A stretch of DNA of 64,000 bases from an uncultured Clostridia bacterium (GCA_934120315.1 CAKOTX010000002.1:19185-83184), one strand, 5' to 3'. Positions 1,365-32,201 are shown, counted from the stretch's first letter. Numbers and translations are program-made. The notes: generated by a model not told the origin, from the sequence alone.

Positions 1365-1365
1365 A

Positions 1366-1398: not shown

Positions 1399-1529
1399 GA
1401 AAATTGAAAAAATATATATGAAAATCATTAACTCAAGTTTTATAAAATAAAAAGATAATTTTGCAAATAAAATAAGCAAAGAAAAAATTAAAATGGTAAA
1501 TTATATTTGTACACAAGATAAGTTGTGAG

Positions 1530-2150: not shown

Positions 2151-2221
2151 TTAGATAATGTAGGAGTTTTTTGCAACTACTCCTGTATTATAATTCTTTA
2201 CAAAAGAAGGGGGAATTAATT

Positions 2222-2341
2222 ATGATGAAATTCTTAGCAAAAATTGCAGAAAAATATGCAAAAGCTACAAATACAGCATGTGCAGCTTTATGGTGGGGAC
2301 ATCAACCCAAAATGCCAGCATCATTAATTAAAAAAGATTAA
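2222..2341 (+). CDS. agrD: AgrD-like autoinducing peptide precursor (39 aa, MMKFLAKIAEKYAKATNTACAALWWGHQPKMPASLIKKD)
   Basis: Not in the ORF track (under 60 aa). AAGGGGG RBS 8 nt upstream. C-x6-HQP-x2-P-x-SL pattern resembles clostridial AgrD. Sits 71 nt downstream of agrB. Confidence 0.75.
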   Translation: MMKFLAKIAEKYAKATNTACAALWWGHQPKMPASLIKKD

Positions 2342-2384
2342 TTCTTGAAGAGAAAATGTTCTTAAACATTAAAATCAATTCAAA

Positions 2385-2415
2385 GAAAAGAACTTCTATA
2401 TGAAGTTCTTTTTTG
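2385..2415. terminator. bidirectional terminator between agrBD and the convergent kinase gene
   Basis: AAAGAACTTC-tatat-GAAGTTCTTT perfect stem with an A-run on one side and a T-run on the other. Confidence 0.7.
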
Positions 2416-2457
2416 CGGGGAAATATAAAGAAAAAGAAGTAGAAAACTACTTCTTAA

Positions 2458-4528: not shown

Positions 4529-4796
4529 ATGTATTCCTCCATTCTACATTAATTTACATTTTTTTCAAAAAACATAGAATTAATATAAATCAAAAATTTG
4601 AACTTGTCAATAGGCTTTATGTAGATATGAAAAAAATTGTATACTATGATATGAGTGCTTTTCCAATTTATTAAATTCAAATGAAAAATATAAGAGAAAA
4701 AATAAAATATCCTAAAAAAAATATACAATTGTAAAAAAATGTATGTAAAATAATGTTACAAAAATATTACTTTTTTATGACATTTATGTTATTTTG

Positions 4797-4825
4797 TTGA
4801 AATGAATACTAGATAAAAGTATAAT
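4797..4825 (+). promoter_or_regulatory. sigma-A type promoter for the protease gene (TTGAAA-17-TATAAT)
   Basis: -35 at 4797-4802, 17-nt spacer, -10 at 4820-4825. Lies about 30 nt upstream of the RBS. Confidence 0.5.
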
Positions 4826-4857
4826 AAAATCGAAGTAGTATATTATAGGAGACACAT

Positions 4858-7800
4858 ATGAAAAGAAAATTAAAAAAAGCATTTCTTCTAATGTTTTTAT
4901 TAATAATGATTTCAATTCCAATATATGCAAAAGAAATAGATGCTGAAGTTGTTGGAGTGGAAAAGTCTAAGGCATTTGAAGAATGGGAAAATTTAGATGA
5001 AAAAGATAGAACAAATAGTATAGAACCATCTTATTATAGTGTTGATATAAAAGACAGTATAAAAAGATCTGTGTATAATAGTTTATTGGATACTAATGAT
5101 ACAATAAGCAAAAGTTATGACTTAAGAAATGAAATAAATAATATAAAAGTTAAGAATCAGAAAAAGGTAGGAGCATGTTGGGCATTTTCTTTTACATCAA
5201 TGCTAGAAACAACTTTGGCACATAAATATAATATTACCCAAAGAGAATATTCACCAATGCACATTGAATATACATGTGCAAGACTTTATAATAGAATTCT
5301 TGGAGGTAATGGAACAAGACTAATGTCACTTGCCTATGCAACAGGAGGATATGGACCAGTCTATGAAAGCGATTTTTCATTTGAAAGTGTATATGATGAA
5401 AAAAATAATGATGCATCACAATATTATTTAACAGATTTAGATAATGTAAATTTAGAACAAAAAGTTAGAGCAAGAGTTACAGATTCTATTATATTTGCTA
5501 ATATAAGTAAAAAATATGATACTAATGGTGAAGTTACATATAACAATTCACAAGATACTTCTAAGACATATTCAAAAGAAGAAGTTGAAGTAATAAGAAA
5601 ATTAATAAAAAATCAAATAAAAGAAAATGGAGCTGTATCTGCAATTTTTTATTCAGATATTGGAGTTACATCTAATAGAGTATATATAAGTGCTAATAAT
5701 TATTATAATTCACAAACAAAAGCTTTTTATTGTGATAATGGTACAATACAAGCCAATCATGCTGTTACAATAGTTGGGTGGGATGACACATATTCGAAAG
5801 AAAATTTTCCGCAAAATCATCAACCAATAAATGATGGGGCATATATTGTATTAAATTCTTGGGGAGAAGAATTTGGAGAAAGTGGATATTTTTATGTATC
5901 ATATGATGATAGTTGTATTGAAAGAGAAATATCAGCAATTAAAGAGATAAAAACATATAATAATGAGATGAATGAAAATGTTTATCAATATGATGAACTT
6001 GGAGTAAGCTATGGAATATCTTTAACTGGGGCTAATGGAAAATATTTAACATCTGTAGAAGCAGCAAATGTTTTTGATAGAAAAGATACTAGTAAAAAAG
6101 AGTATTTAACAGAAGTTGGAATAGGATTAATGTCAACTGAGGGAATAGAAATTTATGTAAATTCACAAGACGGTGATGTTAAAAACGCTAATACATTAGT
6201 TGCGACAGCTACAGGAACAAATGCCTTAGAAAGTGGATATCATTCTTTAAAATTAGCAAATTCAATTGAACTAACAGGAGAAAAATTTGTAATAAAAGTT
6301 AAATATATAAATGAAGAATTCCCAATTATACCACTAGAAATGAATATGGAAGCAAATGGTATAATTACTAAAACATCAAGTTTTTATAATAGTGCAACTT
6401 CAAACAAAGGTGAAAGTTATATATTACGTAAAGGAACGACATGGACTGATATTACAGATATGTCAATGGGTGGTAAAAAAATAAAAAATACTAATGCATG
6501 TATAAAAGGATTTTCAATAGTTCAAGATGAAACACCAACAATTAATGTAGAAGAAATAAGAGTGAATAAAACTAATGAAAAAATATTTGTAGGAGAAAGT
6601 TTTACATTAACAGCAACAGTATTACCAGAGAATGCAACTAACAAAGACATAAAATGGGTAAGCTCAGATGAACAAATTGCAATTGTAGAAAACGGAGTTG
6701 TAAAAGGAATAAAAGCAGGAATAGCTACAATAAAGGCAATATCAAGTGATGAAAATAAAATAGCAGAATGTCAAGTTACAGTAAAAAAACAAGAGGTAAA
6801 TGTTACAGAAATTAAGATAGTACCAGCTTCAGGAAAAATAATAGAAGGAGGAAAATTAAGTTTGTCAGCCAAAATACTTCCTGAAAATACTACAAATAAA
6901 AATATAAAATGGAGTAGTTCTAATATTAATGTTGCAACAGTAAAAGATGGAATTGTAACTGCAATTTCTGCTGGAACTGCAACGATAACAGCAATATCAG
7001 AAGATGGAGCTAAATATGGAACATCAGAAATAACAGTTGAGAAAAAAGAAGAAAATCCTAAAGTAAGTGTAGATAGTGTAAAATTAACATTACAAAAAAC
7101 AAAAATAAAAATTGGAGACAAAACAACACTTCAGGCTGTTGTAGAACCAGAAAATGCAACTAATAAAAAAATAAAATGGATAAGTTCAAATCCAGAGGTA
7201 GCAACAGTAAAAGATGGGATTGTAACTGCAATTTCTGCTGGGACTGCACAGATAAGTGTAACAACAGAAGATGGTAATAAAACTGCAACATGTGAGGTCA
7301 TAGTCGAAAAAGTAATAAATGTATCAGAAATTGAAATTTCTTATAATACTAAAACAATAAATACTGGTGAAAGATTTAATCTAGACGCCAAAATAACTCC
7401 GCAAAATGCAACTAATAAAAAAATAATATGGACAAGTTCAAATATAAGTGTAGCAACGGTAAAAAATGGCGAAGTTATTGGAGTTTCAAACGGAACGGCT
7501 TTAATTACAGCAACAACAGAAGATGGAAACAAAACAGCAACATGTTTAGTAACAGTAAAGAATAGTAATGATGTAAGTGTTAAAGGAATAGAATTAGATA
7601 AAAAAGAAATATCAATGCAAATAAATGATCAGACAAATTTAGTTGCGACAATAAAACCTTATAATGCAACTAATAAAGAAGTGAAATGGGAAAGCTCAGA
7701 TGAAAACATTGCAGTTGTATCAAAAGATGGAATTATAACAGCAGTTTCAGAAGGGACAGCAACAATAAAAGTAACTGCAATAGATGGAAAATATACAGAG

Positions 7801-8037
7801 ACATGTAAGGTTACAGTAAATCCTAAGACAAATACAGCAGATGATATTTATAAAGAGCAAGAATCAGGTTCAGAATTTATAAAAAATGAATCAGGAGTTT
7901 CAAAAGATACTACAGTTTCAAATAAAAATATTCCATATGCTGGAGAGGCAATTAGAATAATAATTAGCATATTTATTGGAGCAATAATTGTAGGAATAAT
8001 ATTAAAGAGGTGTATAGACCTAAAAGATATAAAATAG
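4858..8037 (+). CDS. secreted papain-like (C1 family) cysteine protease with six Big_2 Ig-like repeats and a C-terminal membrane anchor
   Basis: Signal peptide present. Catalytic Cys motif QKKVGACWAFS, His motif NHAVTIVGWDD and the NSWGEEFGESGYFYVSYDD segment. Repeated Big_2-like units of roughly 90 aa (...ATIKAISSDENKIAECQVTV...). Terminal hydrophobic helix followed by KR. Confidence 0.8.
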   Translation: MKRKLKKAFLLMFLLIMISIPIYAKEIDAEVVGVEKSKAFEEWENLDEKDRTNSIEPSYYSVDIKDSIKRSVYNSLLDTNDTISKSYDLRNEINNIKVKNQKKVGACWAFSFTSMLETTLAHKYNITQREYSPMHIEYTCARLYNRILGGNGTRLMSLAYATGGYGPVYESDFSFESVYDEKNNDASQYYLTDLDNVNLEQKVRARVTDSIIFANISKKYDTNGEVTYNNSQDTSKTYSKEEVEVIRKLIKNQIKENGAVSAIFYSDIGVTSNRVYISANNYYNSQTKAFYCDNGTIQANHAVTIVGWDDTYSKENFPQNHQPINDGAYIVLNSWGEEFGESGYFYVSYDDSCIEREISAIKEIKTYNNEMNENVYQYDELGVSYGISLTGANGKYLTSVEAANVFDRKDTSKKEYLTEVGIGLMSTEGIEIYVNSQDGDVKNANTLVATATGTNALESGYHSLKLANSIELTGEKFVIKVKYINEEFPIIPLEMNMEANGIITKTSSFYNSATSNKGESYILRKGTTWTDITDMSMGGKKIKNTNACIKGFSIVQDETPTINVEEIRVNKTNEKIFVGESFTLTATVLPENATNKDIKWVSSDEQIAIVENGVVKGIKAGIATIKAISSDENKIAECQVTVKKQEVNVTEIKIVPASGKIIEGGKLSLSAKILPENTTNKNIKWSSSNINVATVKDGIVTAISAGTATITAISEDGAKYGTSEITVEKKEENPKVSVDSVKLTLQKTKIKIGDKTTLQAVVEPENATNKKIKWISSNPEVATVKDGIVTAISAGTAQISVTTEDGNKTATCEVIVEKVINVSEIEISYNTKTINTGERFNLDAKITPQNATNKKIIWTSSNISVATVKNGEVIGVSNGTALITATTEDGNKTATCLVTVKNSNDVSVKGIELDKKEISMQINDQTNLVATIKPYNATNKEVKWESSDENIAVVSKDGIITAVSEGTATIKVTAIDGKYTETCKVTVNPKTNTADDIYKEQESGSEFIKNESGVSKDTTVSNKNIPYAGEAIRIIISIFIGAIIVGIILKRCIDLKDIK

Positions 8038-8066
8038 AAGCTTTAAATCAAAGCTTCTATTTTTTG
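8035..8066 (+). terminator. rho-independent terminator after protease gene
   Basis: TAGAAGCTTT-aaatc-AAAGCTTCTA perfect 10-bp stem followed by T6. Confidence 0.75.
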
Positions 8067-8128
8067 CATTTATATAAGTAATAATAGTTGGTGTATAAAC
8101 ATAAGATTTAAGAGAAAAGAGGTAGAGA

Positions 8129-8920
8129 ATGAAAGAAAAGAAAACAACGATTATAATATCAGTAATGATAATTGCAATATTTACTATTAGTATATTAGCA
8201 ATGAATGAAAGTGTAATTACTACAAGTGCAAGAGATAGCAAAACAATTGGCTGGGGAATAAAAAGAGCAAATAATAATTTACAACCAGATGTTGGGCAAG
8301 AAAATAGAAAAATGCTAGAAGAAAATGGTGGAATATGTTTAGGAAAAGATACAGAGAAAATAATATATTTGACTTTTGATGAAGGATATGAGGCTGGTTA
8401 TACAGAAAAAATTTTAAATGTATTAAAAGAAAATGAAGTAAAAGCAACTTTCTTTATTACGTCACATTATTTAAATACTGCATCAGAATTAGTTGAAAGA
8501 ATGATAACAGAAGGACATATTGTGGGAAATCATACATGTTCACATCCAAGTTTGCCAAGCAAGACAAATGATGAAATAGAAAGTGAATTAATGAAATTGC
8601 ATAAAGCAGTGTTTGAAAAATTTAATTATGAAATGAAATATATGCGTCCTCCCAAAGGAGAGTTTAATGAGAGGACATTAAAAAAGACACAAGAATTAGG
8701 ATATAAAACTGTTATGTGGAGTTTTGCATATTTTGATTGGGATGAGAAAAAACAACCATCAGTTGAAGAAAGCAAAAAAATAATTATTAATAATTTACAT
8801 TGTGGAGAAATCATGTTATTACATCCAAATTCAAAAACAAATTCACAAGTTTTAGAAGATGTTATAAAAGAAGCAAAAAAACAAGGGTATGAATTTAAAA
8901 CATTAGATGAATTTAAATAG
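8129..8920 (+). CDS. pdaA: polysaccharide deacetylase (NodB domain), PdaA-like sporulation cortex delta-lactam deacetylase
   Basis: NodB motifs TFDEGY (motif 1) and HTCSHP (motif 2). N-terminal TM/signal segment. Located next to yqfCD. Confidence 0.75.
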   Translation: MKEKKTTIIISVMIIAIFTISILAMNESVITTSARDSKTIGWGIKRANNNLQPDVGQENRKMLEENGGICLGKDTEKIIYLTFDEGYEAGYTEKILNVLKENEVKATFFITSHYLNTASELVERMITEGHIVGNHTCSHPSLPSKTNDEIESELMKLHKAVFEKFNYEMKYMRPPKGEFNERTLKKTQELGYKTVMWSFAYFDWDEKKQPSVEESKKIIINNLHCGEIMLLHPNSKTNSQVLEDVIKEAKKQGYEFKTLDEFK

Positions 8921-8932
8921 TGGGAGGAAAAG

Positions 8933-9196
8933 ATGAGAAAAAGAATAGATAAAATATTAGAAATGCCAGCAGAAGTATGTACAAATGCTCCAAAGCTTAC
9001 AATTATTGGCTTTGATGAAGTAATACTTGAAAATTATAAAGGAATATTGGAATATGAAGAATTTTTTGCAAGTATAAGCACATATGCAGGAGTGGTAAAC
9101 ATAAACGGATTTAATTTGAATCTCGAGAAAATGACAAATGATGATATAAAAATTACAGGAAAAATCGAAAATATAGAATTAGAAAGGACACAATAA
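8933..9196 (+). CDS. yqfC: sporulation protein YqfC (YabP family)
   Basis: About 87 aa with the YabP/YqfC-like sequence. Translationally coupled to yqfD. Confidence 0.8.
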   Translation: MRKRIDKILEMPAEVCTNAPKLTIIGFDEVILENYKGILEYEEFFASISTYAGVVNINGFNLNLEKMTNDDIKITGKIENIELERTQ

Positions 9197-10339
9197 ATGT
9201 TCATTAAAGTTATAATGAAATATCTGCTAGGTTATATTAGAATAACAGTAGAAGGTTATTACATAGAGCGATTTATAAATATCTGTACTGCTAATAAAAT
9301 ATTGATATGGAATTTAAAAAGAGAAAAAGGAGTTAAATTACATTTAAATATAGGGATAGAAGACTTTTACAGAGCAGTACCAGTAGCAAAAAAATTAAAA
9401 TGCAGAATAAAAATAGAGAAAAAGAGGGGAATACCATTTATTGTAAACAAGTATCGAAAGAGAAAAGCTTTTATAGTTTCTTTAATAATAATAGCGATTT
9501 TGTTATATGCAAGTTCACTTTTTGTTTGGAACATAGAAATTCAGGTGGAAGATAATTTAAAATTAGATAAAATAGAGGAGGATGTACAAGAAGCAGGATT
9601 AGAAACAGGAATGAAAAAAGACAAAATAAATGTAGAAGAAATAGTAAATAAAATACGTTTAAAAAGAGATGATATTTCATGGATAGGAATTAGTCTAAAA
9701 GGAACAAATGCAATAGTAAAAGTAGTAAAAGCAAAAGAGGCCCCAGAAATAATAGACGAAAAAGAGGCAACTAATATTGTAGCAAAAAAAGCTGGAACAA
9801 TAACAGAAATAATAGCACAAAATGGAATGTCACAAGTTAAAAATGGAGATGAAGTACAAGAAGGTCAAATATTAATTCAAGGAATAATGGAAGGAAAATA
9901 TACAGGACAAAGATATGTGCATAGTTTGGGTGAGATAAAAGCTATAGTTAAATATACTAAAACGGAAAAAATGCAATTAAAAGAAGAACAAAATGTAAAA
10001 ACAGGCAATAAAGAAACGAAATATGGTATAAAATTTAATAATTTTCAAATAAATTTTTACAAAACTCTTTCCAAATTTAAAATTTATGATACAATAGTAG
10101 AAGAAAAAAAGTTTAGGATATTTTCAAACTTATATTTACCAATTTCCGTAAAGAAAATTACGAATGAAGAATTGGAAAAAAATTCAAAAAAATACACAAT
10201 CGAAGAAGCAACTGCAATCTTAACCCAAAAGTTAGAAGAACAACTTGAATCTGAAGTAAATAATAAGCAAGATATACTTCGGAAGAAATGCAGATGTAAC
10301 AAAGGGAGAAGATTTCATAGAAGTAAGTGTAACATATGA
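9197..10339 (+). CDS. yqfD: sporulation protein YqfD (stage IV); C-terminus appears frameshifted, with a more plausible ending in the +1 frame to about 10391
   Basis: Typical yqfC-yqfD pairing. The last 25 aa in the track frame are Arg/Cys-rich nonsense (RKKCRCNKGRRFHRSKCNI). The +1 frame reads GRNADVTKGEDFIEVSVTYEVIENIGMQEKIIDKIN. Confidence 0.75.
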   Translation: MFIKVIMKYLLGYIRITVEGYYIERFINICTANKILIWNLKREKGVKLHLNIGIEDFYRAVPVAKKLKCRIKIEKKRGIPFIVNKYRKRKAFIVSLIIIAILLYASSLFVWNIEIQVEDNLKLDKIEEDVQEAGLETGMKKDKINVEEIVNKIRLKRDDISWIGISLKGTNAIVKVVKAKEAPEIIDEKEATNIVAKKAGTITEIIAQNGMSQVKNGDEVQEGQILIQGIMEGKYTGQRYVHSLGEIKAIVKYTKTEKMQLKEEQNVKTGNKETKYGIKFNNFQINFYKTLSKFKIYDTIVEEKKFRIFSNLYLPISVKKITNEELEKNSKKYTIEEATAILTQKLEEQLESEVNNKQDILRKKCRCNKGRRFHRSKCNI

Positions 10340-10424
10340 AGTGATTGAAAATATAGGAATGCAGGAAAAAATAATAGACAAAATTAACTAACGTAAGAAA
10401 CAAAAGAACCTGCCTACCAATAAC

Positions 10425-11663
10425 TTGGAAAGGGAGAGAAATATGGAAGAGAGAAGTTTAAGAGTAGTAGGAACAGATAAAACATTTATTAATAAATTAA
10501 CAAATACATTGACAAAATTGCTAATACCAACACAAATAGGAATAAATGGAATGCGTATTAGCATGAAAAGAAATGCATTATTAAAGGCATATGAAGCTCA
10601 AGTTGAAGAGACTGATGCAAGCAAAAAAGATATTGTTGAAAAAAAATATGAAGAAGCATATACTGCGTATTTGGAAGCATTAGATAAATATGTTTTAGAT
10701 ACAATATATAAAAAGGTTAAAAATGAAACTGCCACAAAACTAGAAAGTATGGCATTATCTCAATATTATGGAATAGTTCAACTAAAACAAAGTGAATATA
10801 ATGAATATAAGTATAGAAAACAAAAATATTTATTAGAGTTAGATAGAGAAACAGTAATAAATTCTAATAAACAAAAAGTAATAGACAGATATCAAGAATT
10901 TTATATATCAAAACAAGATTCATTATATAAAGGAATCTTAAAAAACTATTCTGTAAAATTAGCTGATAACACAAATGTATATGATTCATCAAAAGAATGG
11001 ATTTATATAAAAATATTTGATACTTTAGAAGATTATATTAAAAATATATTACCACTAAAGATTAAAGATCCGAAATTAGAAAAAGTTGTCAAAGAATATG
11101 AAAAATATGAAAAATTCTCTGTAGGAAAATTAGATGCAAGAGATAATATCGAAAAAAATATGATATTATTAGGAATAAGCAGAAATTTATTTACACATAG
11201 CTTGCCATTAGTAGTAGCAGAACAATGTTACATGAAGCTATTAAAAGATGCAAGATGTTTAGTGCAAGATACAAAAATTGCTGCTAAAAGAGAAAAAGCA
11301 TATACAATGTTATTAAATTTGATAGAAGACTTTAACATAAGACTATTAGCAACAAAAGTATATTGGGATAATCCTAAAGATAGAGAACAATTCAAGAGAT
11401 TTCATGATAAATATAAAGATATTGAAAAATTAAAAGAAATTGATTTTATTGAATATGTAAAACAAAAAGAGATTTTATTCATAAAAGAAGATATGAGTAA
11501 AATAAAAAATGAGAAAACAGATTATACAAGATTGATAAAATATTACAAGAGAAGATTAGTTGATTATGGAGTTATGAAAGAAATTAGAGATTATAAAACT
11601 CAAAACGGAAAATACAAAAGAGATAAAGTAAGTTCTAGAATAAATGAAACAATAAGTGCATAG
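10425..11663 (+). CDS. hypothetical K/E-rich alpha-helical protein (412 aa) of unknown function
   Basis: Long ORF with an RBS (GGAAAGGGAGAG). No recognisable motif. Occupies the slot where phoH and the 7TM-HD gene usually sit between yqfD and ybeY. Confidence 0.6.
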   Translation: MERERNMEERSLRVVGTDKTFINKLTNTLTKLLIPTQIGINGMRISMKRNALLKAYEAQVEETDASKKDIVEKKYEEAYTAYLEALDKYVLDTIYKKVKNETATKLESMALSQYYGIVQLKQSEYNEYKYRKQKYLLELDRETVINSNKQKVIDRYQEFYISKQDSLYKGILKNYSVKLADNTNVYDSSKEWIYIKIFDTLEDYIKNILPLKIKDPKLEKVVKEYEKYEKFSVGKLDARDNIEKNMILLGISRNLFTHSLPLVVAEQCYMKLLKDARCLVQDTKIAAKREKAYTMLLNLIEDFNIRLLATKVYWDNPKDREQFKRFHDKYKDIEKLKEIDFIEYVKQKEILFIKEDMSKIKNEKTDYTRLIKYYKRRLVDYGVMKEIRDYKTQNGKYKRDKVSSRINETISA

Positions 11664-12161
11664 GTGGTAAAAATGTATCAATTAGAATATTTAGATTTAG
11701 AAGAAAATAATAAATATGAAGAAATTATAAAAAAAGTTATAGCTCAATGTTTTAAAGAAGAAAAACTAGAAAATTCAAAACTTTATATAAGTATTACTTT
11801 AACAACACCAGAGCATATTCATGAAATAAATAAACAATATAGGAATGTAGATAGAGCAACTGATGTTCTATCATTTCCTATGTTTGAAAAAGATGAATTA
11901 GATGAAAAAATAGAAACACAAAATTTTGAACATGAAGATGTTCTTGGAGATATTGTAATTTCTATTGAAAAAGTAGAAGAACAAGCAAAAGAATATGGAC
12001 ATAGTTTTGAAAGAGAATTTGCATATATGCTTGTACATGGTTTTTATCATTTAATGGGATATGACCATATAAAAGAAGAGGATAAAGTGAAGATGAGACC
12101 AAAAGAGGAAACAGTCCTAAATAAATTAGGAATAAGAAGGGAAGAAATGAATGAAGAATAA
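11664..12161 (+). CDS. ybeY: endoribonuclease YbeY (16S rRNA 3'-end maturation)
   Basis: HGFYHLMGYDH zinc-binding H-x-x-x-H-x5-H motif. Confidence 0.9.
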   Translation: MVKMYQLEYLDLEENNKYEEIIKKVIAQCFKEEKLENSKLYISITLTTPEHIHEINKQYRNVDRATDVLSFPMFEKDELDEKIETQNFEHEDVLGDIVISIEKVEEQAKEYGHSFEREFAYMLVHGFYHLMGYDHIKEEDKVKMRPKEETVLNKLGIRREEMNEE

Positions 12162-13215
12162 AAAAACATTTATTTTGTTAGCAATCTTAGCTATTTTAGT
12201 AATAGTTGCAGGAGGTCTTGTTATTTATAAGATTCTTACAAGAGAAAAAGTTGCTAATTCAGAGCCTGTATCTAATACTAATGTAGCAGAAGATAAAGGA
12301 CCATTAGTAGTTCAAGAAAAAAAGGTACAAATATTTAGTGGAACAGATAGACCAATTGCGGTAATGATAGACAACCATTCAGGAGCATGGCCACAAGCTA
12401 ATTTAAACAAAGCATATATGGTATATGAAATAATTGTAGAAGGTGGAGAAACTAGGCTAATGGCACTTTTTAAAGGACAAGACTTAGATAAAATTGGACC
12501 AATTAGAAGTTCGAGACACTATTTTCTAGACTATGCTCTAGAAAATGATGCAATATATGTACATCATGGATGGAGTCCACAAGCTCAAAGTGATATTTCA
12601 ACATTAGGAGTAAATAATATTAATGGTATTCAAGAAAGTTCAAAAGATTTCTGGAGAGTAAAAGATAAATCAGCACCACATAACTTATTTACAACTACAG
12701 AAAGTATTTTGAAAATTGCCGAAAGAAAAGGTTATAAAACAGAATCAAACAAAAAAAGTGTATTGAATTATGTGGCAACAGAATTTGATTTGACTGAAAA
12801 ATATAAAGAAGAAAGCATAGAAGCTACAAGTGTGACAATACCACATTCAACACTTCAAACAGTAAAATATGAATATAATGCAGAAACAAAGAAATATATA
12901 AGATATGCAAGAAATAAATTACAATCAGATTATGAAACAGGAGAACCTGTAACCACAAAAAATATAATTATAACTATGTGTGATAATTATACATTAGATG
13001 ATAGTGAAAATAAAGGTAGACAGGGACTTAAAAATATAGGGACATTTGATGGATATTATATTACAGATGGAAAAGCAATTCAAATAAAATGTATTAAAAC
13101 AGCAAGAGATGAACAAACTGTATATAAAGATTTGAATGGCAAAGAAATAGAAATAAATGATGGAAATACATTTGTAAATATTTGTCCAACAGATGCTAAA
13201 TTAGTGATTGAATAA
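12151..13215 (+). CDS. DUF3048-family secreted/lipoprotein (YerB-like)
   Basis: N-terminal TM/signal segment. Recalled sequence features of DUF3048 (IAVMIDNH...ETRLMALF). Confidence 0.6.
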   Translation: MKNKKTFILLAILAILVIVAGGLVIYKILTREKVANSEPVSNTNVAEDKGPLVVQEKKVQIFSGTDRPIAVMIDNHSGAWPQANLNKAYMVYEIIVEGGETRLMALFKGQDLDKIGPIRSSRHYFLDYALENDAIYVHHGWSPQAQSDISTLGVNNINGIQESSKDFWRVKDKSAPHNLFTTTESILKIAERKGYKTESNKKSVLNYVATEFDLTEKYKEESIEATSVTIPHSTLQTVKYEYNAETKKYIRYARNKLQSDYETGEPVTTKNIIITMCDNYTLDDSENKGRQGLKNIGTFDGYYITDGKAIQIKCIKTARDEQTVYKDLNGKEIEINDGNTFVNICPTDAKLVIE

Positions 13216-13246
13216 TATACATAATTTATTAAGGGAGGAATTTATT

Positions 13247-14206
13247 ATGAAATCAAAAAGAAAAGTAGTTTTAGTAGGAGCAGGATTTGTAGGAATGAGT
13301 ATGGCTTACTCATTGTTAAATCAAGGAGGAGTAGAAGAATTAGTATTAATAGATGTTAATAAAGATAAAACTATTGGAGAAGAAATGGATTTATCTGATG
13401 GTTTACCATATGCACCACATAAAATGAAAATAAAAGCAGGAGATTACAGTGAATGTAAAGATGCTAATATTGTAGTAATTACAGCAGGACTAGCACAAAA
13501 GCCAGGACAAACAAGATTAGAATTAGCAGTAGTAAATGCAAAAATTATGAAAGAAATAACACAAAATGTAATGGCAAATGGATTTAGTGGAGTATTTATT
13601 GTTGCAAGTAATCCTGTTGATTTAATGTCATATGTTGTTGCAGAAGTTTCTGGAATGCCAAAATCTAGAGTAATTGGTTCAGGAACAGTATTAGACACTG
13701 CAAGATTAAGATATTTAATTGCAGAATATCTTCAAGTATCAAGTAAAAATGTACATGCTTATATTTTAGGAGAACATGGGGATTCTTCATTGGTTCCATG
13801 GGATCATTGTTATGTTGGATGCAAAAAAATGATAGACATTATGAAAGATAATAATTATCCAATGGATGATTTAAAGAAAATACATGATGGAGTTTGGCAA
13901 GCTGCTTATAAAATAATAGAAAAGAAAAAGGCCACATATTATGGAATTGGTATGGCATTAAATAGATTAGTACATGCAGTACTAAATGATGAAAATGCAA
14001 TTCTAACAGTATCAACATATCAAAATAATGAATATGAACAAGAAGGAATGTATATTGGAGTTCCAGCAATAATTAATAAAGATGGTGTAAAAGAAATTTT
14101 ACAATTAAAGTTAAATGATGAAGATCAAGCTAAATTCAATCATAGTTGTGAAATTATGAAAGAAAATATAGAAAAAGAAATTAGACCAATAATAAATGAA
14201 AATTAG
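13247..14206 (+). CDS. ldh: L-lactate dehydrogenase
   Basis: KVVLVGAGFVG NAD-binding motif and LDH catalytic region (SNPVD, VIGSGTVLDTAR, EHGDS). AAGGGAGGA RBS before ATG13247. The track start at 13208 overlaps the upstream gene. Confidence 0.9.
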   Translation: MKSKRKVVLVGAGFVGMSMAYSLLNQGGVEELVLIDVNKDKTIGEEMDLSDGLPYAPHKMKIKAGDYSECKDANIVVITAGLAQKPGQTRLELAVVNAKIMKEITQNVMANGFSGVFIVASNPVDLMSYVVAEVSGMPKSRVIGSGTVLDTARLRYLIAEYLQVSSKNVHAYILGEHGDSSLVPWDHCYVGCKKMIDIMKDNNYPMDDLKKIHDGVWQAAYKIIEKKKATYYGIGMALNRLVHAVLNDENAILTVSTYQNNEYEQEGMYIGVPAIINKDGVKEILQLKLNDEDQAKFNHSCEIMKENIEKEIRPIINEN

Positions 14207-26538: not shown

Positions 26539-27408
26539 ATGGAAAATATATTAGAAGAAACTAAATTTATTATGAAAAAATATAATATTAGAGCAAATAA
26601 GAGTTTAGGACAAAATTTTTTGATTAATAGTGAAGTTGTAGAAAATATTGTAAATAGTAGTGAAATAAATAAAGAAGATATGGTAATAGAAGTTGGTCCT
26701 GGATTAGGAACTCTTACAAAATATCTTCTAGAAAAAGCAGGAAAAGTATTATGTATCGAATTAGATACAAAGATGATAAAAATATTAAATGATAGATTTT
26801 CAGAATATGATAATTTTGAAATAATTAATGCAGATGTATTGAAAGTGAATTTAAACGAAATAATAGAAGAAAATAAGAAAAATGAAACTATAAAAAATGT
26901 AAAAGTAGTTGCAAATTTACCATATTATATTACAACACCAATTATTATGAAACTCTTAGAAGATAAACTTGATATAGAAAGCATTACAGTTATGATTCAA
27001 AAAGAAGTTGCAGACAGGCTTATAGAAATTCCAGGAGGAAAAAATACAGGTGCAATAACACATACAGTATATTATTATTGTGAATCTGAAAAAATAATGG
27101 AGGTCCCAAATAGTTCATTTATACCTGAACCAGAAGTAACATCAGAAGTAATAAAAATGAATTTGAGAAAAGAGCCTGGAGTAAAAATAGATAATCCTAA
27201 AGTAATGTTTATGATTATAAAAAGTGCTTTTATGCAAAGAAGAAAAACTTTATTAAATTCGTTAACAAATACTAAAGTATTTATAAATAAAGAAGAGGGA
27301 TTAAATATTTTAAAAAAATTAAATCTTAATGAAAACATTAGAGCAGAAGAATTGTCACTTCAAGATTTTGCTAATATAGCTCAAGAAATTACAGGAAAGG
27401 AAGAGTAA
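26539..27408 (+). CDS. rsmA: 16S rRNA (adenine1518/1519-N6)-dimethyltransferase RsmA/KsgA
   Basis: LGQNFLIN motif and SAM-binding VIEVGPGLGTLT. RBS GAAAGGA before ATG26539. Confidence 0.9.
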   Translation: MENILEETKFIMKKYNIRANKSLGQNFLINSEVVENIVNSSEINKEDMVIEVGPGLGTLTKYLLEKAGKVLCIELDTKMIKILNDRFSEYDNFEIINADVLKVNLNEIIEENKKNETIKNVKVVANLPYYITTPIIMKLLEDKLDIESITVMIQKEVADRLIEIPGGKNTGAITHTVYYYCESEKIMEVPNSSFIPEPEVTSEVIKMNLRKEPGVKIDNPKVMFMIIKSAFMQRRKTLLNSLTNTKVFINKEEGLNILKKLNLNENIRAEELSLQDFANIAQEITGKEE

Positions 27409-27410
27409 AA

Positions 27411-28349
27411 ATGAAGATAGTTTTTATGGGAACACCAGATTTTGCAGAAAAGTCATTAGAAGGAGTTTATAATGCAGGACACGAAATTTTAGCAGTAGTA
27501 ACTAACCCAGATAGACCAAAGGGAAGAGGAATGAAAATGGTTGCTTCTCCAGTAAAAGAATTTGCGGTTTCTAAAAATTTAAAAATATATCAACCAGAAA
27601 AAGTTAGAAATAATGTTGAATTTATTGAAGAAATAAAAGCTTTACAACCAGATGTGATTTGTGTAGTTGCATATGGAAAAATTCTTCCAAAAGAAATTTT
27701 GGATATTCCAAGATTAGGTTGTATCAATGTTCATGGTTCATTGTTGCCTAAATATAGAGGTGCAGCTCCAATTCAATGGGCGGTAATAAATGGTGAAAAA
27801 GTAACAGGTGTTACAACAATGTATATGGATGTTGGAATGGATACTGGAGATATGATTCTTAAAGAAGAAGTAAATATTGGAGAAGATGAAACAACTGGAG
27901 AATTATGGGATAAACTATCTGAAGTGGGTGCAAAATTATTAGTTAAAACTTTAAGTCAGATAGAAGATGGAAATGCCCCAAGACTTCCACAAGGCGAAGA
28001 TTTTACAATGGCTCCTATGTTAAATAAAGATATGTCAAAAATTGATTGGAATTCAAAAACTGCTAAAGAAATTAAAAATCTTGTAAGAGGGCTAAACCCA
28101 ATAATGGGAACCTATTCTTATTTAGATGATAAAAAAATAAAATTCTGGAAAGTTGATGTGTTACCACTTGAAAATGAAAATGTAGAAAATGGTACAATTT
28201 TGAAATCTAATAGTAAAGATGGATTATATATAAAAGCTAAAGATGGAGTGATAAAAGTTTTAGAAATTCAAGGTGAAAATTCTAAAAGAATGCCTATCCA
28301 AGATTTTTTAAGAGGAAATGAATTAGAAGAAGGAAAAAGATTTGAATAA
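27411..28349 (+). CDS. fmt: methionyl-tRNA formyltransferase
   Basis: MKIVFMGTPDFA N-terminus. Formyltransferase core (HGSLLPKYRGAAPIQWA). Confidence 0.95.
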   Translation: MKIVFMGTPDFAEKSLEGVYNAGHEILAVVTNPDRPKGRGMKMVASPVKEFAVSKNLKIYQPEKVRNNVEFIEEIKALQPDVICVVAYGKILPKEILDIPRLGCINVHGSLLPKYRGAAPIQWAVINGEKVTGVTTMYMDVGMDTGDMILKEEVNIGEDETTGELWDKLSEVGAKLLVKTLSQIEDGNAPRLPQGEDFTMAPMLNKDMSKIDWNSKTAKEIKNLVRGLNPIMGTYSYLDDKKIKFWKVDVLPLENENVENGTILKSNSKDGLYIKAKDGVIKVLEIQGENSKRMPIQDFLRGNELEEGKRFE

Positions 28350-28385
28350 ATAACAAATATGAAAAAAATTTATTTATAGTCAAAA

Positions 28386-28414
28386 TTGACATAATATCAA
28401 AAAAGTGATATAAT
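28386..28414 (+). promoter_or_regulatory. perfect consensus sigma-A promoter TTGACA-17-TATAAT driving the GC-rich gene; about 92-nt leader with two small hairpins
   Basis: -35 at 28386-28391, 17-nt spacer, -10 at 28409-28414. The leader (28415-28506) has TGTAATGgttCATTACA and ATAGC...GCTAT inverted repeats. RBS AAGGAGGAATAGT-ATG. Confidence 0.6.
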
Positions 28415-28506
28415 TTGCATGTAATGGTTCATTACACAATTTAATGATAGCTTATAATAGGGCTATTATGAATTATCCTTAAAACATTATTACAAGGAGG
28501 AATAGT

Positions 28507-29148
28507 ATGCCAGGAATTTTGTATCATCTTAGTTTTGCAGAGGAGGTATATCGGAAATTAGCACCAGTCATGCCTTTGGATAAGGTTTCTTTTATGGCTG
28601 GCAACCTGATTCCTGATTTGGCCACCGACAAGAAAAAGTCTCATTATCGCAAGAAAGCGTCTGTCGACGGTTTCTTTGTTCCTGAAATGGAATTGGTAAA
28701 AAGAGACCTATTCGTGCCTGAGGACTCAGTTAAGTTCGGAATGTTCTGTCACCTGTATCTGGATTATTATTTCATCGAGGAGTTCTTGATTCCTGAATTT
28801 ATTTGGGATGTTGATAAGATGAGAGTAATCAATCCTAGAAACCACAAAGAGTGGGATGTAAAGACTTTCTTCTCTCATTCTGGTATGTATGGTGCATACA
28901 CCGAAATCAACCAGCTGATGGTGAGAGATGGTCATGTATCACTCAGCACTGTTGAAGAAATTCCGGAAATTCTGCCCAACACAGGCTTGACCGTGTTTGA
29001 TACAAGACGCGAAAAGACCTGGAAGGCAGAGCTGGAGGAGTATTTGGCACAGAAAAAAGAATATACCGGAGAAATTTTTGATTATAATAGGTTGTGGAGC
29101 TGTATCGAAAGAATCGCAACCCAATTTGTAGAAGAAATTTCTAAATAA
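28507..29148 (+). CDS. GC-rich (about 42%) hypothetical protein, possibly a zinc-dependent phospholipase C-like / metal-dependent hydrolase (weak call)
   Basis: His/Asp spacing recalls the Zn-PLC family (H7, D37, H46, HLYLD with H+4 D). Codon usage is unlike the host: ctg, gcc, gac and ggc are used. Confidence 0.5.
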   Translation: MPGILYHLSFAEEVYRKLAPVMPLDKVSFMAGNLIPDLATDKKKSHYRKKASVDGFFVPEMELVKRDLFVPEDSVKFGMFCHLYLDYYFIEEFLIPEFIWDVDKMRVINPRNHKEWDVKTFFSHSGMYGAYTEINQLMVRDGHVSLSTVEEIPEILPNTGLTVFDTRREKTWKAELEEYLAQKKEYTGEIFDYNRLWSCIERIATQFVEEISK

Positions 29149-29166
29149 GTTATACAAAATGGCAAA

Positions 29167-29208
29167 GAGCCACTGAACTGCAAAGTTTGGTGGCTCCATT
29201 CTTTTTTA
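29167..29208 (+). terminator. terminator after GC-rich gene 1
   Basis: GAGCCAC...GTGGCTC stem followed by CATTCTTTTTT. Confidence 0.55.
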
Positions 29209-29216
29209 TAGGAAAT

Positions 29217-29242
29217 CCCCCCAAGACGTTAGTCTTGGGGGG
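29217..29242. other. perfect 11-bp G/C-rich stem-loop CCCCCCAAGAC-gtta-GTCTTGGGGGG between convergent genes
   Basis: Seen directly. No flanking T-run on either strand. Confidence 0.8.
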
Positions 29243-29276
29243 ATAGATTAGAGCTTGAAACTATCGGTTTTGTCGA

Positions 29277-30830
29277 TTATTCGGCAGGGTTGACAGCAGG
29301 AGCCTGAGTAGGCTGCTGAGCCTTCTCGTCCTTTTTCTTGTCGAACATATCGAGCATCAGGTATCCCATGACAGGGTTGTTGGCTCCGGTCATATTGCCA
29401 CCCATCATGGAAGACATGAGAAACACCTTCATCATGTCGTCATCGCCGCCGTCCTTCTCCTTCAGGAGCATGAGCGGAAGCAGCTGGTTCATAGTGGCAT
29501 TCTGATCGCCATCTTCTGCCGGAGCAGACATAATGGAAGACATGAGCATCATCTTCATCATGTCGTCATCGCCACCGAGCTTGTCCTTGAAAAGCATCAA
29601 CGGAAGCAGCTGGTTCATCTGACCGCCGTCTTCGCCGGACTGGCCACACATTGCAGACATGATAGCCAGCTTCTCGACATCAAAGTCATCGCCCATGTTG
29701 AAGGAATCGCTGAGAGCGATAATCTTGGAATAGCAGCTGAAGCCCAGAACATTCTTGATAGGAATGACAGTCTTCATCTCGCCGGTCTTGGCACACAGGG
29801 TCTGGGTGCTTCCCTTTGCAACCTTCATTACGAAGTAGTATTCGCCGGAGTCCTTGATGAGGTCGCCCTCGTTCAGCTTGGTAGTAGGCAGAATGAAGAT
29901 AGGAAGATTGCCAAGCTGCATGTCGCCGACATCGGTGATTTCTTTCTTCTTCTTGTCGTAGATCCGCCAGTTGTCGCCGTTCTTGACAGCAACACCCATC
30001 AGGGTACTCGCGATGTTTTCGTCTTTGTTGGGACCGAACTCCATGTTCATGTTAAAAATGTTGTTTGCCATAGTAGTATCCTCCTTGATTTCTTGTTGTG
30101 TGGATTGTTCCGCTTGTCGTTGTTGTTGTTCGAGTTCTCTGGTTCTCAGTGCACTTTCGCGTTCTTGCAAAGATTGTTCCTTGTCTTTTAAAGCATTTTC
30201 ACGCTCTTGCAAAGATTGTTCATTGCTTTTTAAAGCATGTTCACGTTCTTGCAGTTCACGCGCTTTGCACATCAATTTACCAGCTTTTGCGAATTTTTCA
30301 TAGTCGGACTGTTCGAATTCAAAGCCCAATGTAATGGCCATAAGAAGCGTATTACCTTTGTCACCCAATTTGACACAATTACAATGGTCTACGTATTCAC
30401 AAGTCCAGCATATGTTGCTTCCTACTTGACTATCTGCGGTAAATGGAACACTGAAAGTAACAATGGGTTTATCCGAATGTTCAATGATAGAATCAATCGG
30501 AAATTTCCCACTCATATTCTGCTTAGCTCTTACACAAATTTTTTTTGTCGAATAGTTAAGGGAGTTGCCATAGAAATAAATTTTATAGCAACCTCGATTA
30601 TGATTAGACGGGATATTAGGACATTCGAAATTAGTTTGGAAATCGTAAGAATCGTAATCTCCTAATTTGTGGTAGCTGTTCCAGTCGTGCCATTCTCCGC
30701 AATAGGGACATAGAAAGCGTTTCGGGGTCAAGTCCAAGAGTCCTTTTTCCACGAAGGCATCCTCCTTGTCTATACTGCTAGGTTGATAGTTTCTAACTCC
30801 TTTCTTAATAGTGTATTTGTGCATATACAC
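29277..30830 (-). CDS. GC-rich (about 48-50%) hypothetical 517-aa protein: Cys-rich N-terminal domain, 14-aa coiled-coil repeats, central globular domain, duplicated Met/Asp-rich C-terminal repeat
   Basis: CPYCGEWHDW...CPNIPSNHNRGC...CWTCEYVDHCNC Cys clusters. (R-E-x-A-L-K-x-x-E-Q-S-L-Q-E)x3 repeats. The unit GGQMNQLLPLML(F/L)K(D/E)K-GGDDDMMK occurs twice. Confidence 0.7.
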   Translation of the reverse strand: MYMHKYTIKKGVRNYQPSSIDKEDAFVEKGLLDLTPKRFLCPYCGEWHDWNSYHKLGDYDSYDFQTNFECPNIPSNHNRGCYKIYFYGNSLNYSTKKICVRAKQNMSGKFPIDSIIEHSDKPIVTFSVPFTADSQVGSNICWTCEYVDHCNCVKLGDKGNTLLMAITLGFEFEQSDYEKFAKAGKLMCKARELQEREHALKSNEQSLQERENALKDKEQSLQERESALRTRELEQQQRQAEQSTQQEIKEDTTMANNIFNMNMEFGPNKDENIASTLMGVAVKNGDNWRIYDKKKKEITDVGDMQLGNLPIFILPTTKLNEGDLIKDSGEYYFVMKVAKGSTQTLCAKTGEMKTVIPIKNVLGFSCYSKIIALSDSFNMGDDFDVEKLAIMSAMCGQSGEDGGQMNQLLPLMLFKDKLGGDDDMMKMMLMSSIMSAPAEDGDQNATMNQLLPLMLLKEKDGGDDDMMKVFLMSSMMGGNMTGANNPVMGYLMLDMFDKKKDEKAQQPTQAPAVNPAE

Positions 30831-30886
30831 TTTAGGCTACCAAAGTCAATTTGCCTTTGATATAAGCACATAAAATACCAACATCT

Positions 30887-30915
30887 ATTATACTGCGACT
30901 TTACATAAAAGTCAA
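30887..30915 (-). promoter_or_regulatory. consensus sigma-A promoter (TTGACT-17-TATAAT) for GC-rich gene 2
   Basis: On the minus strand, -35 at 30915-30910 and -10 at 30892-30887. About 55-nt leader. Confidence 0.55.
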
Positions 30916-30982
30916 TATATTTCTGTTTTATTCACATTTTGTACGCTAAAATGGTGGATAGGAACTCAATATCATTAACTTA

Positions 30983-31026
30983 ATGAAAAAAAGAGAAAAC
31001 CTACAAAAATTTGTAAGTTTTCTCTT
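30983..31026 (-). terminator. terminator of the 31061-31465 gene
   Basis: AAGAGAAAAC...GTTTTCTCTT stem with a T-run in minus orientation. Confidence 0.65.
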
Positions 31027-31060
31027 AAGTTAATGACATTGCTCATTAGAGAACTTTTTG

Positions 31061-31465
31061 TTATTTTGTTGCTTCTATAAAAAGTTGCTTATTTTCAAGC
31101 AGAGGTGTAATTTCTTCTTGCATTTGTAAAAGCTGTTCATAATTACTCCGAGTACTTGAATCCCATATAGGAAGTAATTCAAGTAGATTAAGATTAGAAG
31201 TAATTTGCTTTAGAATAACTTTTGCAATGTCAGAAATTTTTGCCCCTTTTTTTATAGAAATCAAATTTTCAAGTTGGATATAGTCATATTGATTCATGTC
31301 GCCAAACTCTTTGAATTCTTTTTTACGTAAATCTTTGTCATTTAAGAGAGGATATAATTTATTGAACAGACTAAAAGTTTTTCTTATAATAAGGTAACTG
31401 ATAGTTGTTGGAATAAGGTAAATCCAACAAATGCCTAATAGAAGAACGATAAGCAAGAAATTCAT
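31061..31465 (-). CDS. hypothetical small membrane protein (134 aa)
   Basis: Start chosen at the Met preceding the TM helix MNFLLIVLLLGICWIYLI. An AGGGGG-like RBS is present. The track ORF extends into the promoter region. Confidence 0.5.
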   Translation of the reverse strand: MNFLLIVLLLGICWIYLIPTTISYLIIRKTFSLFNKLYPLLNDKDLRKKEFKEFGDMNQYDYIQLENLISIKKGAKISDIAKVILKQITSNLNLLELLPIWDSSTRSNYEQLLQMQEEITPLLENKQLFIEATK

Positions 31466-31608
31466 TTTTGTGCCCCCTATAAAAATTATTTTTGCTAGAG
31501 TATAGAAAATTTTATTAAAATTATAGCATATATCCATAAAATAAGCAAGATATAAGCGAATAAAATAATTGAATTTGTACATAATGTATTTGAAAGTGAG
31601 GAAGTATT

Positions 31609-32037
31609 ATGGAAGAAAGATTAAACCAATTATTATGTGATTTAGAAGTTTTTTCAGTTAAGTTGCAAAATTATCATTGGAATGTAACTGGAAAAGGATT
31701 TTTTTTAACTCATGAAAAATTAGAAGAGTATTATGAAGAAATAAGAGAACAATTAGATGAAGTAGCAGAACATATTGCAATAAAAGGTTCAGAACCATTT
31801 GGCAGAATGGAAGACTTTTTGAAGAATGCTAGGATAATGGAAGCTAAAAATGAAAAAATAAAAAGTTTAGATATTATAAAAAATGTTGTTAAAGATTTAG
31901 AAATTCTGAAAAATGATGTAGAGTTAATAAAAAAGGAAGCGGAAGAAGAGAATGACTATGCGACATCTACACTAATGGATGAATATTTACAAGATTATTC
32001 AAAAAGAATATGGATGCTAAATGAAACAATCAAATAA
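31609..32037 (+). CDS. Dps-family DNA-binding ferritin-like protein
   Basis: Ferritin-like di-iron motif (NYHWNV...HE...E...). 142 aa. Confidence 0.85.
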   Translation: MEERLNQLLCDLEVFSVKLQNYHWNVTGKGFFLTHEKLEEYYEEIREQLDEVAEHIAIKGSEPFGRMEDFLKNARIMEAKNEKIKSLDIIKNVVKDLEILKNDVELIKKEAEEENDYATSTLMDEYLQDYSKRIWMLNETIK

Positions 32038-32044
32038 TCATAAA

Positions 32045-32086
32045 ACAAAAAATCACTTAATAAAATTTATTAAGTGATTTTTTTTG
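32045..32086. terminator. strong bidirectional terminator (14-bp perfect palindrome AATCACTTAATAAA/TTTATTAAGTGATT)
   Basis: A6 run upstream and T8 run downstream. Confidence 0.8.
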
Positions 32087-32201
32087 GAATTTACTATACA
32101 AATTAAAAAATTAGTTATATAATGTATGCGATAATGGGAAAAATGGCAATTGACATTTTCCTTTATATTAAAGCCTATAGAATAGGCAAAAGGAGATAAT
32201 T

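Follow-up and report, generated by a model that had tools for sequence, protein, structure and literature searches.

A mobile two-gene cassette at the fmt/dps junction of an uncultured Clostridia bacterium pairs a predicted zinc phosphodiesterase with a variable partner carrying a phage-type domain

Gene content, signals and composition of the locus

In a 64,000-nucleotide (nt) stretch of DNA from an uncultured Clostridia bacterium (GCA_934120315.1, CAKOTX010000002.1:19185-83184), referred to in its entirety as the window, two convergent genes lie between fmt and dps. A reading of the sequence alone (the sequence-only reading) had singled them out as a compositionally foreign pair of unknown function, each gene behind a consensus promoter. 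Our analysis indicates that this segment is almost certainly an acquired accessory cassette, cut from or left by small Tn4451-like mobilizable elements and remnants of integrative and conjugative elements (ICEs) of low-GC gut Clostridia, with its own two constitutive sigma-A promoters, leaders and terminators. The plus-strand gene encodes a 213-amino acid (aa) protein with the predicted fold of the zinc phospholipase C (PLC)/P1-nuclease superfamily, and the minus-strand gene, here called the partner, encodes a mosaic protein with a variable cysteine-rich N-terminal domain (N-domain), a putative coiled coil and a C-terminal domain (C-domain) of a type found in large phages. The features of the cassette are as follows (ORF, open reading frame; SD, Shine-Dalgarno sequence; GC3, GC content at third codon positions).

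28363-30966, no strand: the whole cassette, with approximate borders drawn from DNA homology to copies elsewhere and from the jump in GC content and GC3
28386-28414, plus: promoter of the 213-aa gene, TTGACA-17-TATAAT with a TG extension, matching the consensus at 12/12 positions
28420-28506, plus: 5' leader of the 213-aa gene, with hairpins at 28420-28436 and 28440-28483 and the SD AAGGAGG at 28494-28500
28507-29148, plus: 213-aa gene, an ORF with a canonical SD and its own terminator hairpin
29167-29206, plus: intrinsic terminator of the 213-aa gene, a 13-bp stem (hairpin 29167-29196) followed by a T run
29215-29244, minus: terminator of the partner, a perfect 13-bp GC-rich hairpin (100% complementary) followed by a T-rich tract, found in all alleles
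29251-29265, no strand: inverted repeat, 3'-side arm (GAGCTTGAAACTATC), between the stop codon and the terminator of the partner
29277-30752, minus: partner gene, probable true coding sequence of 491 aa (Cys-rich N-domain, coiled coil, phage-type C-domain)
29277-30071, minus: in-frame nested ORF of 264 aa encoding the phage-type C-domain, with its own SD AAGGAGGAT at 30086-30078 and an ATG at 30071
30134-30259, minus: 42-nt (14-aa) tandem repeats in the coiled-coil region, from repeat analysis
30303-30752, minus: hypervariable Cys-rich N-domain (CPxCGxWH...), delimited in an alignment of partner homologues
30785-30799, no strand: inverted repeat, 5'-side arm (GAGTTAGAAACTATC on the minus strand), in the partner leader just past an SD-like AAAGGAG
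30790-30880, minus: 5' leader of the partner (...TATATCAAAGGCAAATTGACTTTGGTAGCCTAAAGTGTATATGCACAAATACAC...), nearly invariant
30887-30915, minus: promoter of the partner, TTGACT-17-TATAAT, an 11/12 match kept in all cassettes

When computed, the composition of the segment agrees with what had been read by eye. The GC fraction in 300-nt windows is 0.23-0.31 up to 28500, 0.40-0.52 across approximately 28500-30850, and 0.25-0.30 thereafter, and the GC3 of the two ORFs as originally proposed (0.441 for the 213-aa ORF and 0.540 for a 517-aa ORF) compares with a mean of 0.132 (standard deviation 0.032, maximum 0.225) among the 50 other long ORFs of the window. The excess of GC-ending codons is likewise real, with CTG, GGC, CAG and GAC 5-25 times more common in the cassette than in the other ORFs (per thousand codons, CTG 25.6 versus 1.0, GGC 28.4 versus 2.4 and CAG 19.9 versus 1.8). 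Three composition strata can be distinguished within the cassette: a GC3 of 0.44 in the 213-aa gene, 0.35 in partner codons 1-227 (N-domain and coiled coil) and 0.71 in the last 264 partner codons (C-domain).

The consensus promoters noted ahead of each gene proved to be the two best sites in the region, and the hexamers of the 213-aa gene promoter are nearly invariant in nine cassette variants from different hosts. The promoters and leaders had been described as AT-rich and host-like; AT-rich they are, but they are not host sequence, for cassettes in unrelated hosts conserve them. DNA homology of the window to such copies takes in 28365-29265 (promoter, leader, 213-aa gene and terminators) and 30786-30966 (partner leader and promoter), and the promoters and leaders therefore belong to the cassette. 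The leader of the 213-aa gene folds at -18 kcal/mol (z = -1.6), holds an inverted repeat and is kept in other cassettes; the first of its hairpins (28420-28436) is placed at the predicted transcript start. The partner leader, of about 90 nt, is approximately 95% identical even among cassettes that are only 73-75% identical overall, so that it is more conserved than any coding part of the same variants, and it always precedes an N-domain gene in the 23 metagenome loci found by means of the leader itself. Its predicted fold is ordinary (z = -0.24). A small ORF was considered as the cause of this conservation and rejected, since the candidate ORF is not conserved across cassettes. Neither leader matched a covariance model of Rfam 15, the only matches being sub-threshold ones to the neighbouring terminator.

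The partner gene is bracketed by two 15-nt arms of an inverted repeat (GAG-N4-AAACTATC), one in its 3' and one in its 5' untranslated region, which match each other at 13/15 positions. The AACTAT core of the repeat is present in 14/14 distinct allele combinations, and the arms fall where the hypervariable segment has its breakpoints. A first impression that the two arms covary failed a permutation test of own versus cross pairings. The repeats could have marked an invertible segment (inverton or shufflon); this was rejected, as a single orientation was found in all of the approximately 20 non-redundant contexts. No recombinase lies beside the window copy of the cassette.

A predicted zinc phosphodiesterase and its mosaic partner

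The 213-aa ORF exists as first described, but the statement that it carries no assignable motif does not hold, as its sequence bears the signature of the zinc PLC/P1-nuclease superfamily. Against PF00882 the window protein scores 21.3 bits (E = 2.9e-4, residues 7-87) where the curated cut-off is 26.8, and 26 of 45 relatives match the same model at E <= 0.01, the best at 9.7e-10. An AlphaFold model with a mean predicted local distance difference test (pLDDT) score of 96.6 shows an all-alpha fold that can be superposed on solved zinc PLC and P1-nuclease members, and phospholipases C are among its best structural neighbours. A Foldseek search of the PDB with this model gave nothing at E <= 0.001, and sequence-profile searches of the PDB gave no match. 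Inspection by eye revealed neither a signal peptide nor a transmembrane (TM) segment. By its modelled fold the 213-aa protein is a divergent member of the superfamily, predicted to be cytoplasmic, and we regard it as a predicted metallo-phosphodiesterase whose metal site and substrate class are suggested by this kinship. It is encoded under strong purifying selection, with a ratio of non-synonymous to synonymous substitution rates (dN/dS) of 0.05-0.18.

The protein family is small, comprising 144 clusters at 50% identity in an exhaustive search of 1.84 billion proteins, and most members have 200-240 aa. Its invariant columns are M1, H7, P36, D37, H46, G78, H82 and D86, with P2 and G3 nearly invariant. 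The classical PLC/P1 site binds three zinc ions through nine ligands, one of which is the N-terminal residue. We take H7, D37, H46 and H82-x3-D86 to correspond to Zn1 and Zn3 ligands of Bacillus cereus PLC, a tentative mapping that hhalign did not confirm: when the family was compared with a B. cereus PLC sequence, only an SH(Y/F) segment aligned, at a probability of 0.4%. The nearly invariant Met-Pro-Gly N-terminus may stand in for the N-terminal Trp ligand of PLC, and the Zn2 ligands appear to have no invariant counterpart in the family. Compared with the described members of the superfamily (PF00882; B. cereus PLC 1ah7, Listeria PLC 8cqm and S1 nuclease 5fb9), the 213-aa protein is much smaller, and unlike the classical enzymes it is predicted to be cytoplasmic and has, by this tentative mapping, an invariant counterpart for five of the nine zinc ligands.

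The partner had been presented as a 517-aa ORF (29277-30830, GTG start). The ORF exists, but its start was placed 26 codons too far upstream. The GTG at 30752 is preceded by a strong SD, AAGGAGGAT (30767-30759); partner homologues called in other sequences start at the same point (MEKxLL), and the 5' extension is interrupted by stop codons in other alleles. From these features of the sequence, the product probably has 491 rather than 517 aa. An AlphaFold2 prediction gave a pLDDT of about 90 for the N-domain, a long helix at residues 148-216 of the 491-aa protein that we read as a coiled coil, and values below 50 for the C-terminal part. Outside the coiled coil, the partner has no domain match in Pfam, PHROGs, NCBIfam or the PDB. 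The copy number of the repeats in the coiled-coil region varies by strain, yielding partners of 491, 505 or 519 aa.

The zinc-ribbon-like N-domain is hypervariable. Its allele types are deeply divergent (about 28-57% identical) and are exchanged between otherwise near-identical cassettes; for example, between the window and its sister species (locus L034; loci other than the window are given L numbers) the N-domain is wholly replaced by another allele, such that the segment 30106-30786 cannot be aligned while its flanks align. Among closely related alleles the dN/dS of the N-domain is about 0.7-2.5, versus 0.12-0.23 for the C-domain; the allele pairs are not independent of one another, yet the contrast with the C-domain is large and consistent. 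The counts of non-synonymous and synonymous differences are 22:2 between L049 and L056 and 10:0 between L046 and L059. Judged by these substitutions, the N-domain is under diversifying selection.

The C-domain, which combines a GC3 of 0.71 with Met-rich repeats (NQLLPLML...GGDDDMMK), was traced to phages. Repeats of 126 nt at 29403-29618 encode its LPLML...GGDDDMMK motif, of which some homologues have up to four copies. A tblastn search of phage records matched an unannotated 4-kb scaffold labelled 'Bacteriophage sp.', and a 392-aa ORF on that scaffold led to a family of 280 proteins with the conserved motifs FGK, MPV..GD.I.H, FGF.FYTKV and NPFGNMLPF.LM, for which there is no Pfam or PHROG model. 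Members of the family lie on contigs of 130-166 kb with such phage hallmarks as co-directional small ORFs, tRNA islands, GIY-YIG and HNH endonucleases and T4-type RNA ligases. In IMG/VR, too, the family is present, with at least 80 viral contigs (60-400 kb) that carry it. In one 131-kb phage-like contig (L067), a C-domain homologue lies inside a region (716-13294) with 23 tRNAs in 14 kb and interspersed GIY-YIG and HNH genes. Pfam searches with the conserved phage neighbours of the C-domain gene were mostly empty, returning only RlaP-like, Metallophos and DUF5052 matches.

The C-domain begins exactly at an internal start signal, an SD followed by an in-frame ATG. This signal reads AAGGAGGATACTACTATG in the cassette alleles (ATG at 30071), and phage homologues keep the arrangement despite encoding other residues (AGGAGGAAATAATATG in L070 and AAGGAGAAAAAGGTTATG in L067). 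From the conservation of this internal signal we infer that the partner gene gives rise to two products, the full-length protein and the C-domain alone. In-frame nested genes whose long and short products share a C-terminus are known from phages, as in C/Nu3 of lambda and gene 4A/4B of T7. The partner and its phage homologues resemble these in having a conserved SD and ATG inside an ORF at a domain boundary; they differ in having no kinship of sequence or function with either example, and the short product of the cassette is a prediction.

In the 23 loci found through the leader, the tail of the partner varies. The Met-rich C-domain is the commonest form, four loci have no tail past the coiled coil (L039, L043, L044 and L060), L009-L018 encode a 532-aa partner with a TM-rich tail next to TraG, and L050 has an NlpC/P60 cell-wall hydrolase domain (E = 1.5e-20). 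Both the NlpC/P60 tail of L050 and the TM-rich tail of L009-L018 resemble proteins of the conjugation apparatus. These tails, together with the phospholipases C among the structural neighbours of the 213-aa protein, would fit an accessory of the envelope or of conjugation (entry exclusion or modulation of the mating pore), in which the PLC-like enzyme acts on membrane lipid from inside and the partner targets the transfer machinery. We consider such a role improbable, since no signal peptide or TM segment was seen in the window protein, no transfer genes lie near the window cassette, and, on such short contigs, the exchange of tails may reflect accidental recombination.

Mobility, host range and recent exchange

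The proposal that the segment is foreign and horizontally mobile was borne out by the occurrence of the same DNA unit, promoters included, in distant hosts and different contexts. Homology to the copies in unrelated contexts begins at 28361-28384 and stops at 30944-30966, as determined by DNA comparison and by alignments of leaders and promoters. Between hosts whose adjacent housekeeping proteins share only 38-49% identity, cassette DNA is 88-92% identical; in L020, for example, the cassette is 88% identical at the DNA level and the adjoining YraN and DprA are 49% and 38% identical, respectively, at the protein level. The exact 213-aa protein is found on many gut-metagenome contigs at the fmt/dps site (L001-L008), and a 96% identical copy in L009-L018 has as neighbours a helix-turn-helix (HTH) gene, small ORFs, an insertion sequence (IS) and a gene for a TraG/VirD4 coupling protein. 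In three loci (L042, L019 and L021) the pair is inside small elements that encode a Mob_Pre (MobV) relaxase (E = 6.6e-46), a DUF6076 protein, an HTH_36/DnaD-like protein and a large serine recombinase. In L031 the pair adjoins rpoB and an integrase fragment, and its 213-aa gene has decayed. Finally, the sister-species locus L037 has two tandem copies of the cassette with an rve-family IS between them, a hint that the unit can be moved or amplified by IS elements.

The make-up of these elements recalls Tn4451 and Tn4453, which consist of a large serine recombinase (TnpX), a MobV relaxase (TnpZ) and cargo such as catP. In L042, L019 and L021 the cassette takes the cargo position of a small element with the Mob_Pre relaxase and serine recombinase, a likeness in gene make-up. 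The window copy differs in lacking the recombinase, the relaxase and DUF6076, and its cargo is no resistance gene; since the recombinase and relaxase are present only in the related copies, the window holds a promoter-to-promoter fragment rather than an element. Some elements with the serine recombinase and MobV relaxase of the Tn4451 type insert in the traG gene of ICEs (PMC5704250), and the TraG context of L009 fits this mode of insertion.

The carriers of the cassette are all low-GC (26-32%) and include 12 GTDB species representatives of uncultured Clostridia. No link emerged to Bacteroidales, named earlier as one place to look, all carriers found being low-GC Clostridia. Neither cassette protein matched a plasmid collection; nor were the two proteins as such present in IMG/VR, where the distant C-domain family was the only one to appear. 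In metagenomes of the human gut the cassette is widespread: it is represented by hundreds of protein clusters, and Hadza and Nepali people are among those sampled.

The rival explanation that the locus is old and vertically inherited, its higher GC content being due to constraint or expression, would be favoured by the constant position of the cassette: every strain found has it at the fmt/dps site, as does the sister species, in which fmt and murE are 95% identical to those of the window (L034). An empty site was not found, as all 12 contigs with an identical fmt carry the cassette. The sequence-only reading had named the same genes at the same locus in all relatives as grounds for an old, composition-driven feature; part of this, the shared site, is what we observed, but mobility is still apparent from the other contexts and from synonymous divergence (dS). 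Between the window and L034, dS is only 0.04 for the 213-aa gene, compared with 0.31 for fmt, 0.41 for murE, 0.55 for dps and 0.79 for rsmA. The same DNA in mobilizable elements and distant hosts, and a GC3 of 0.71 in a genome with a GC3 of 0.13, unparalleled in the 50 other genes, also argue against vertical descent, and an old locus is effectively excluded.

The two genes do recur together elsewhere: the convergent pair is found in about 20 non-redundant contexts, and every 213 homologue of at least 82% identity has the partner beside it. Nevertheless, pairing is not obligatory. Homologues at 73-80% identity to the 213-aa protein sit alone at unrelated chromosomal sites (L023-L029), solo or truncated partners are found in L039, L043 and L060, an intact 213-aa gene has no partner or a truncated one in L020 as well as in L023-L029, and an intact partner lies beside a dead 213-aa gene in L030 and L031. 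These exceptions bear on two further explanations. The first, that the two are unrelated cargo genes that became neighbours on one mobile backbone and have no joint function, is in keeping with their separate, convergent transcription units, the occurrence of each gene without the other, and the GC3 values of 0.44, 0.35 and 0.71, which point to different origins. The convergent pair and its shared terminator region are nonetheless maintained in those 20 or so contexts, including some without the rest of the element (the window, L009, L031 and L034), and the constant presence of the partner beside the closer 213 homologues also speaks against independence, which makes this explanation rather unlikely. 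The second, an addiction system resembling a toxin-antitoxin (TA) pair with the zinc hydrolase as toxin and the partner as antidote, would account for persistence after decay of the element; the pair does persist without mobility genes, and the enzyme is potentially harmful. It is very unlikely, given that an intact 213-aa gene occurs without an intact partner (L020, L023-L029) and an intact partner beside a dead 213-aa gene (L030, L031), that convergent genes and a 491-aa 'antitoxin' are unlike known TA loci, and that the TA models of PADLOC gave no match. A type II TA module in particular was rejected, because the transcription units are convergent and separate and either gene can occur intact where the other is missing or dead.

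The insertion point lies between the 3' ends of fmt (plus strand) and a host ORF (minus strand) of 134 or 173 aa, so that the window copy is flanked directly by fmt and rsmA on one side and by the host ORF, dps and murE on the other. The host ORF (31061-31582, minus strand), listed as 173 aa and called as 134 aa in metagenomes, has host composition and a hydrophobic N-terminal part, and had no family match above threshold in Pfam, PHROGs, NCBIfam or PADLOC. The right border of the cassette lies directly against the terminator of this ORF (30991-31026). Across 27000-32200, comparison of the window with L034 reveals a mosaic of flank identity, from 79% to 98% in adjacent 150-nt windows, which suggests frequent homologous recombination around the locus. 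Elsewhere in the window, at 61207-61309, a SAM (S-box) riboswitch (72 bits) lies upstream of the ORF at 61372-62484 and is unrelated to the cassette.

Possible roles in phage and mobile-element conflict

Existing annotation agrees with the sequence-only reading in assigning no function to the pair: neither gene is annotated anywhere, and NCBI and JGI call all members hypothetical. Searches of Pfam, PHROGs, NCBIfam and PADLOC with both cassette proteins gave nothing above threshold, and a literature search for DUF6076 or PF00882 in a cassette-like context found nothing relevant. An accessory cassette left by a mobilizable element is a familiar kind of locus; the content of this one is new, in that none of the libraries searched has a family for the partner or its phage-type domain, and the enzyme represents a minimal branch of its superfamily that has yet to be characterised.

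Selection indicates that all parts of the cassette are functional, with dN/dS values spanning 0.05-0.23 across the 213-aa gene and the C-domain, and the cassette is intact in the 12/12 contigs with identical fmt and in the sister species. Our tentative interpretation, drawn from gene content and patterns of selection, is that the pair may be a module of phage or mobile-element conflict, of the defence type, made up of a variable sensor and a zinc phosphodiesterase effector. A role in conflict is suggested because a conserved enzyme lies beside a diversifying partner, because the pair is carried by mobilizable elements, and because it is retained intact in the absence of mobility genes. In such a module the partner would be the specificity or sensor component, with an N-domain that diversifies and is swapped as whole alleles, and the captured phage-type C-domain could engage the homologous phage protein or the target of that protein. 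The conserved zinc hydrolase would then be the effector, acting on phosphodiester bonds of nucleic acids, nucleotides or phospholipids. A narrower version of this idea, which we put forward with more doubt, would make the pair a two-component system for immunity (or exclusion), hitherto undescribed, in gut Clostridia, in which a sensor encoded by nested genes (the diversifying zinc-ribbon and the phage-captured domain) would control a minimal P1-nuclease/PLC-like phosphodiesterase, and the leader and inverted repeat would be regulatory or recombination signals for the exchange of sensor alleles.

The cassette resembles two-component anti-phage systems in being mobile cargo, in placing a conserved enzyme next to a diversifying partner and in being kept in chromosomes. 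It differs from them in having no PADLOC model, in a convergent rather than operonic arrangement and in its loose pairing. Besides the shared site in all relatives, which counts against acquisition as discussed above, several observations weigh against a defence module. No family of PADLOC-DB 2.0 matched either protein at E <= 1, and PADLOC searches of the neighbouring genes at other loci gave weak SMC-like matches and one Fic-like match (PDC-S04) and no convincing defence island. In addition, the same domain architecture in lytic phages fits a counter-defence role equally well. The support that neighbouring genes lend to a defence role is anecdotal. The Fic-like PDC-S04 candidate (E = 9e-69) is encoded at 8990-9583 of L029, approximately 400 nt upstream of a solo 213 homologue.

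In a counter-defence or establishment module, the genes would be expressed early on entry into a new host, the phage-type domain and the enzyme would neutralise host immunity, for example by breaking down second-messenger nucleotides as nuclease P1 does in vitro, and the N-domain would track host defence proteins. Several features of the cassette and its relatives are consistent with this: the C-domain family is abundant in large phages of virulent type, in non-structural regions with tRNA islands, homing endonucleases, T4-type RNA ligases, a kinase and RNA-repair genes; the cassette adjoins the relaxase gene in the mobilizable elements; the N-domain is diversifying; and the promoters are strong matches to the consensus. 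However, the cassette remains intact under purifying selection in chromosomes that lack any mobility gene, in all sampled strains of two sister species, and such retention is unexpected for a gene that is useful only in transfer. No known anti-defence family matches the cassette proteins. We place counter-defence second, as a less likely explanation, and retain, tentatively, a conflict module of the defence type.

Individually, several components of the cassette are undescribed: a compact cytoplasmic branch of the zinc PLC/P1 superfamily, a domain with a conserved in-frame internal start that mobilizable elements have in common with large phages (at least 80 genomes), a Cys-rich domain whose dN/dS is 1 or more, and a non-coding leader that is more conserved than the coding sequence it accompanies. 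Should either a defence or a counter-defence role prove true, the cassette would represent an effector chemistry not seen before and an instance of a mobile element putting a phage domain to new use, and it would open a way into the conflict between phages and their uncultured low-GC Clostridia hosts. Should its function turn out to be mundane, the locus would still be a clean case of a promoter-to-promoter fragment of a mobilizable element that has reached fixation in a chromosome even as one domain continues to be replaced.

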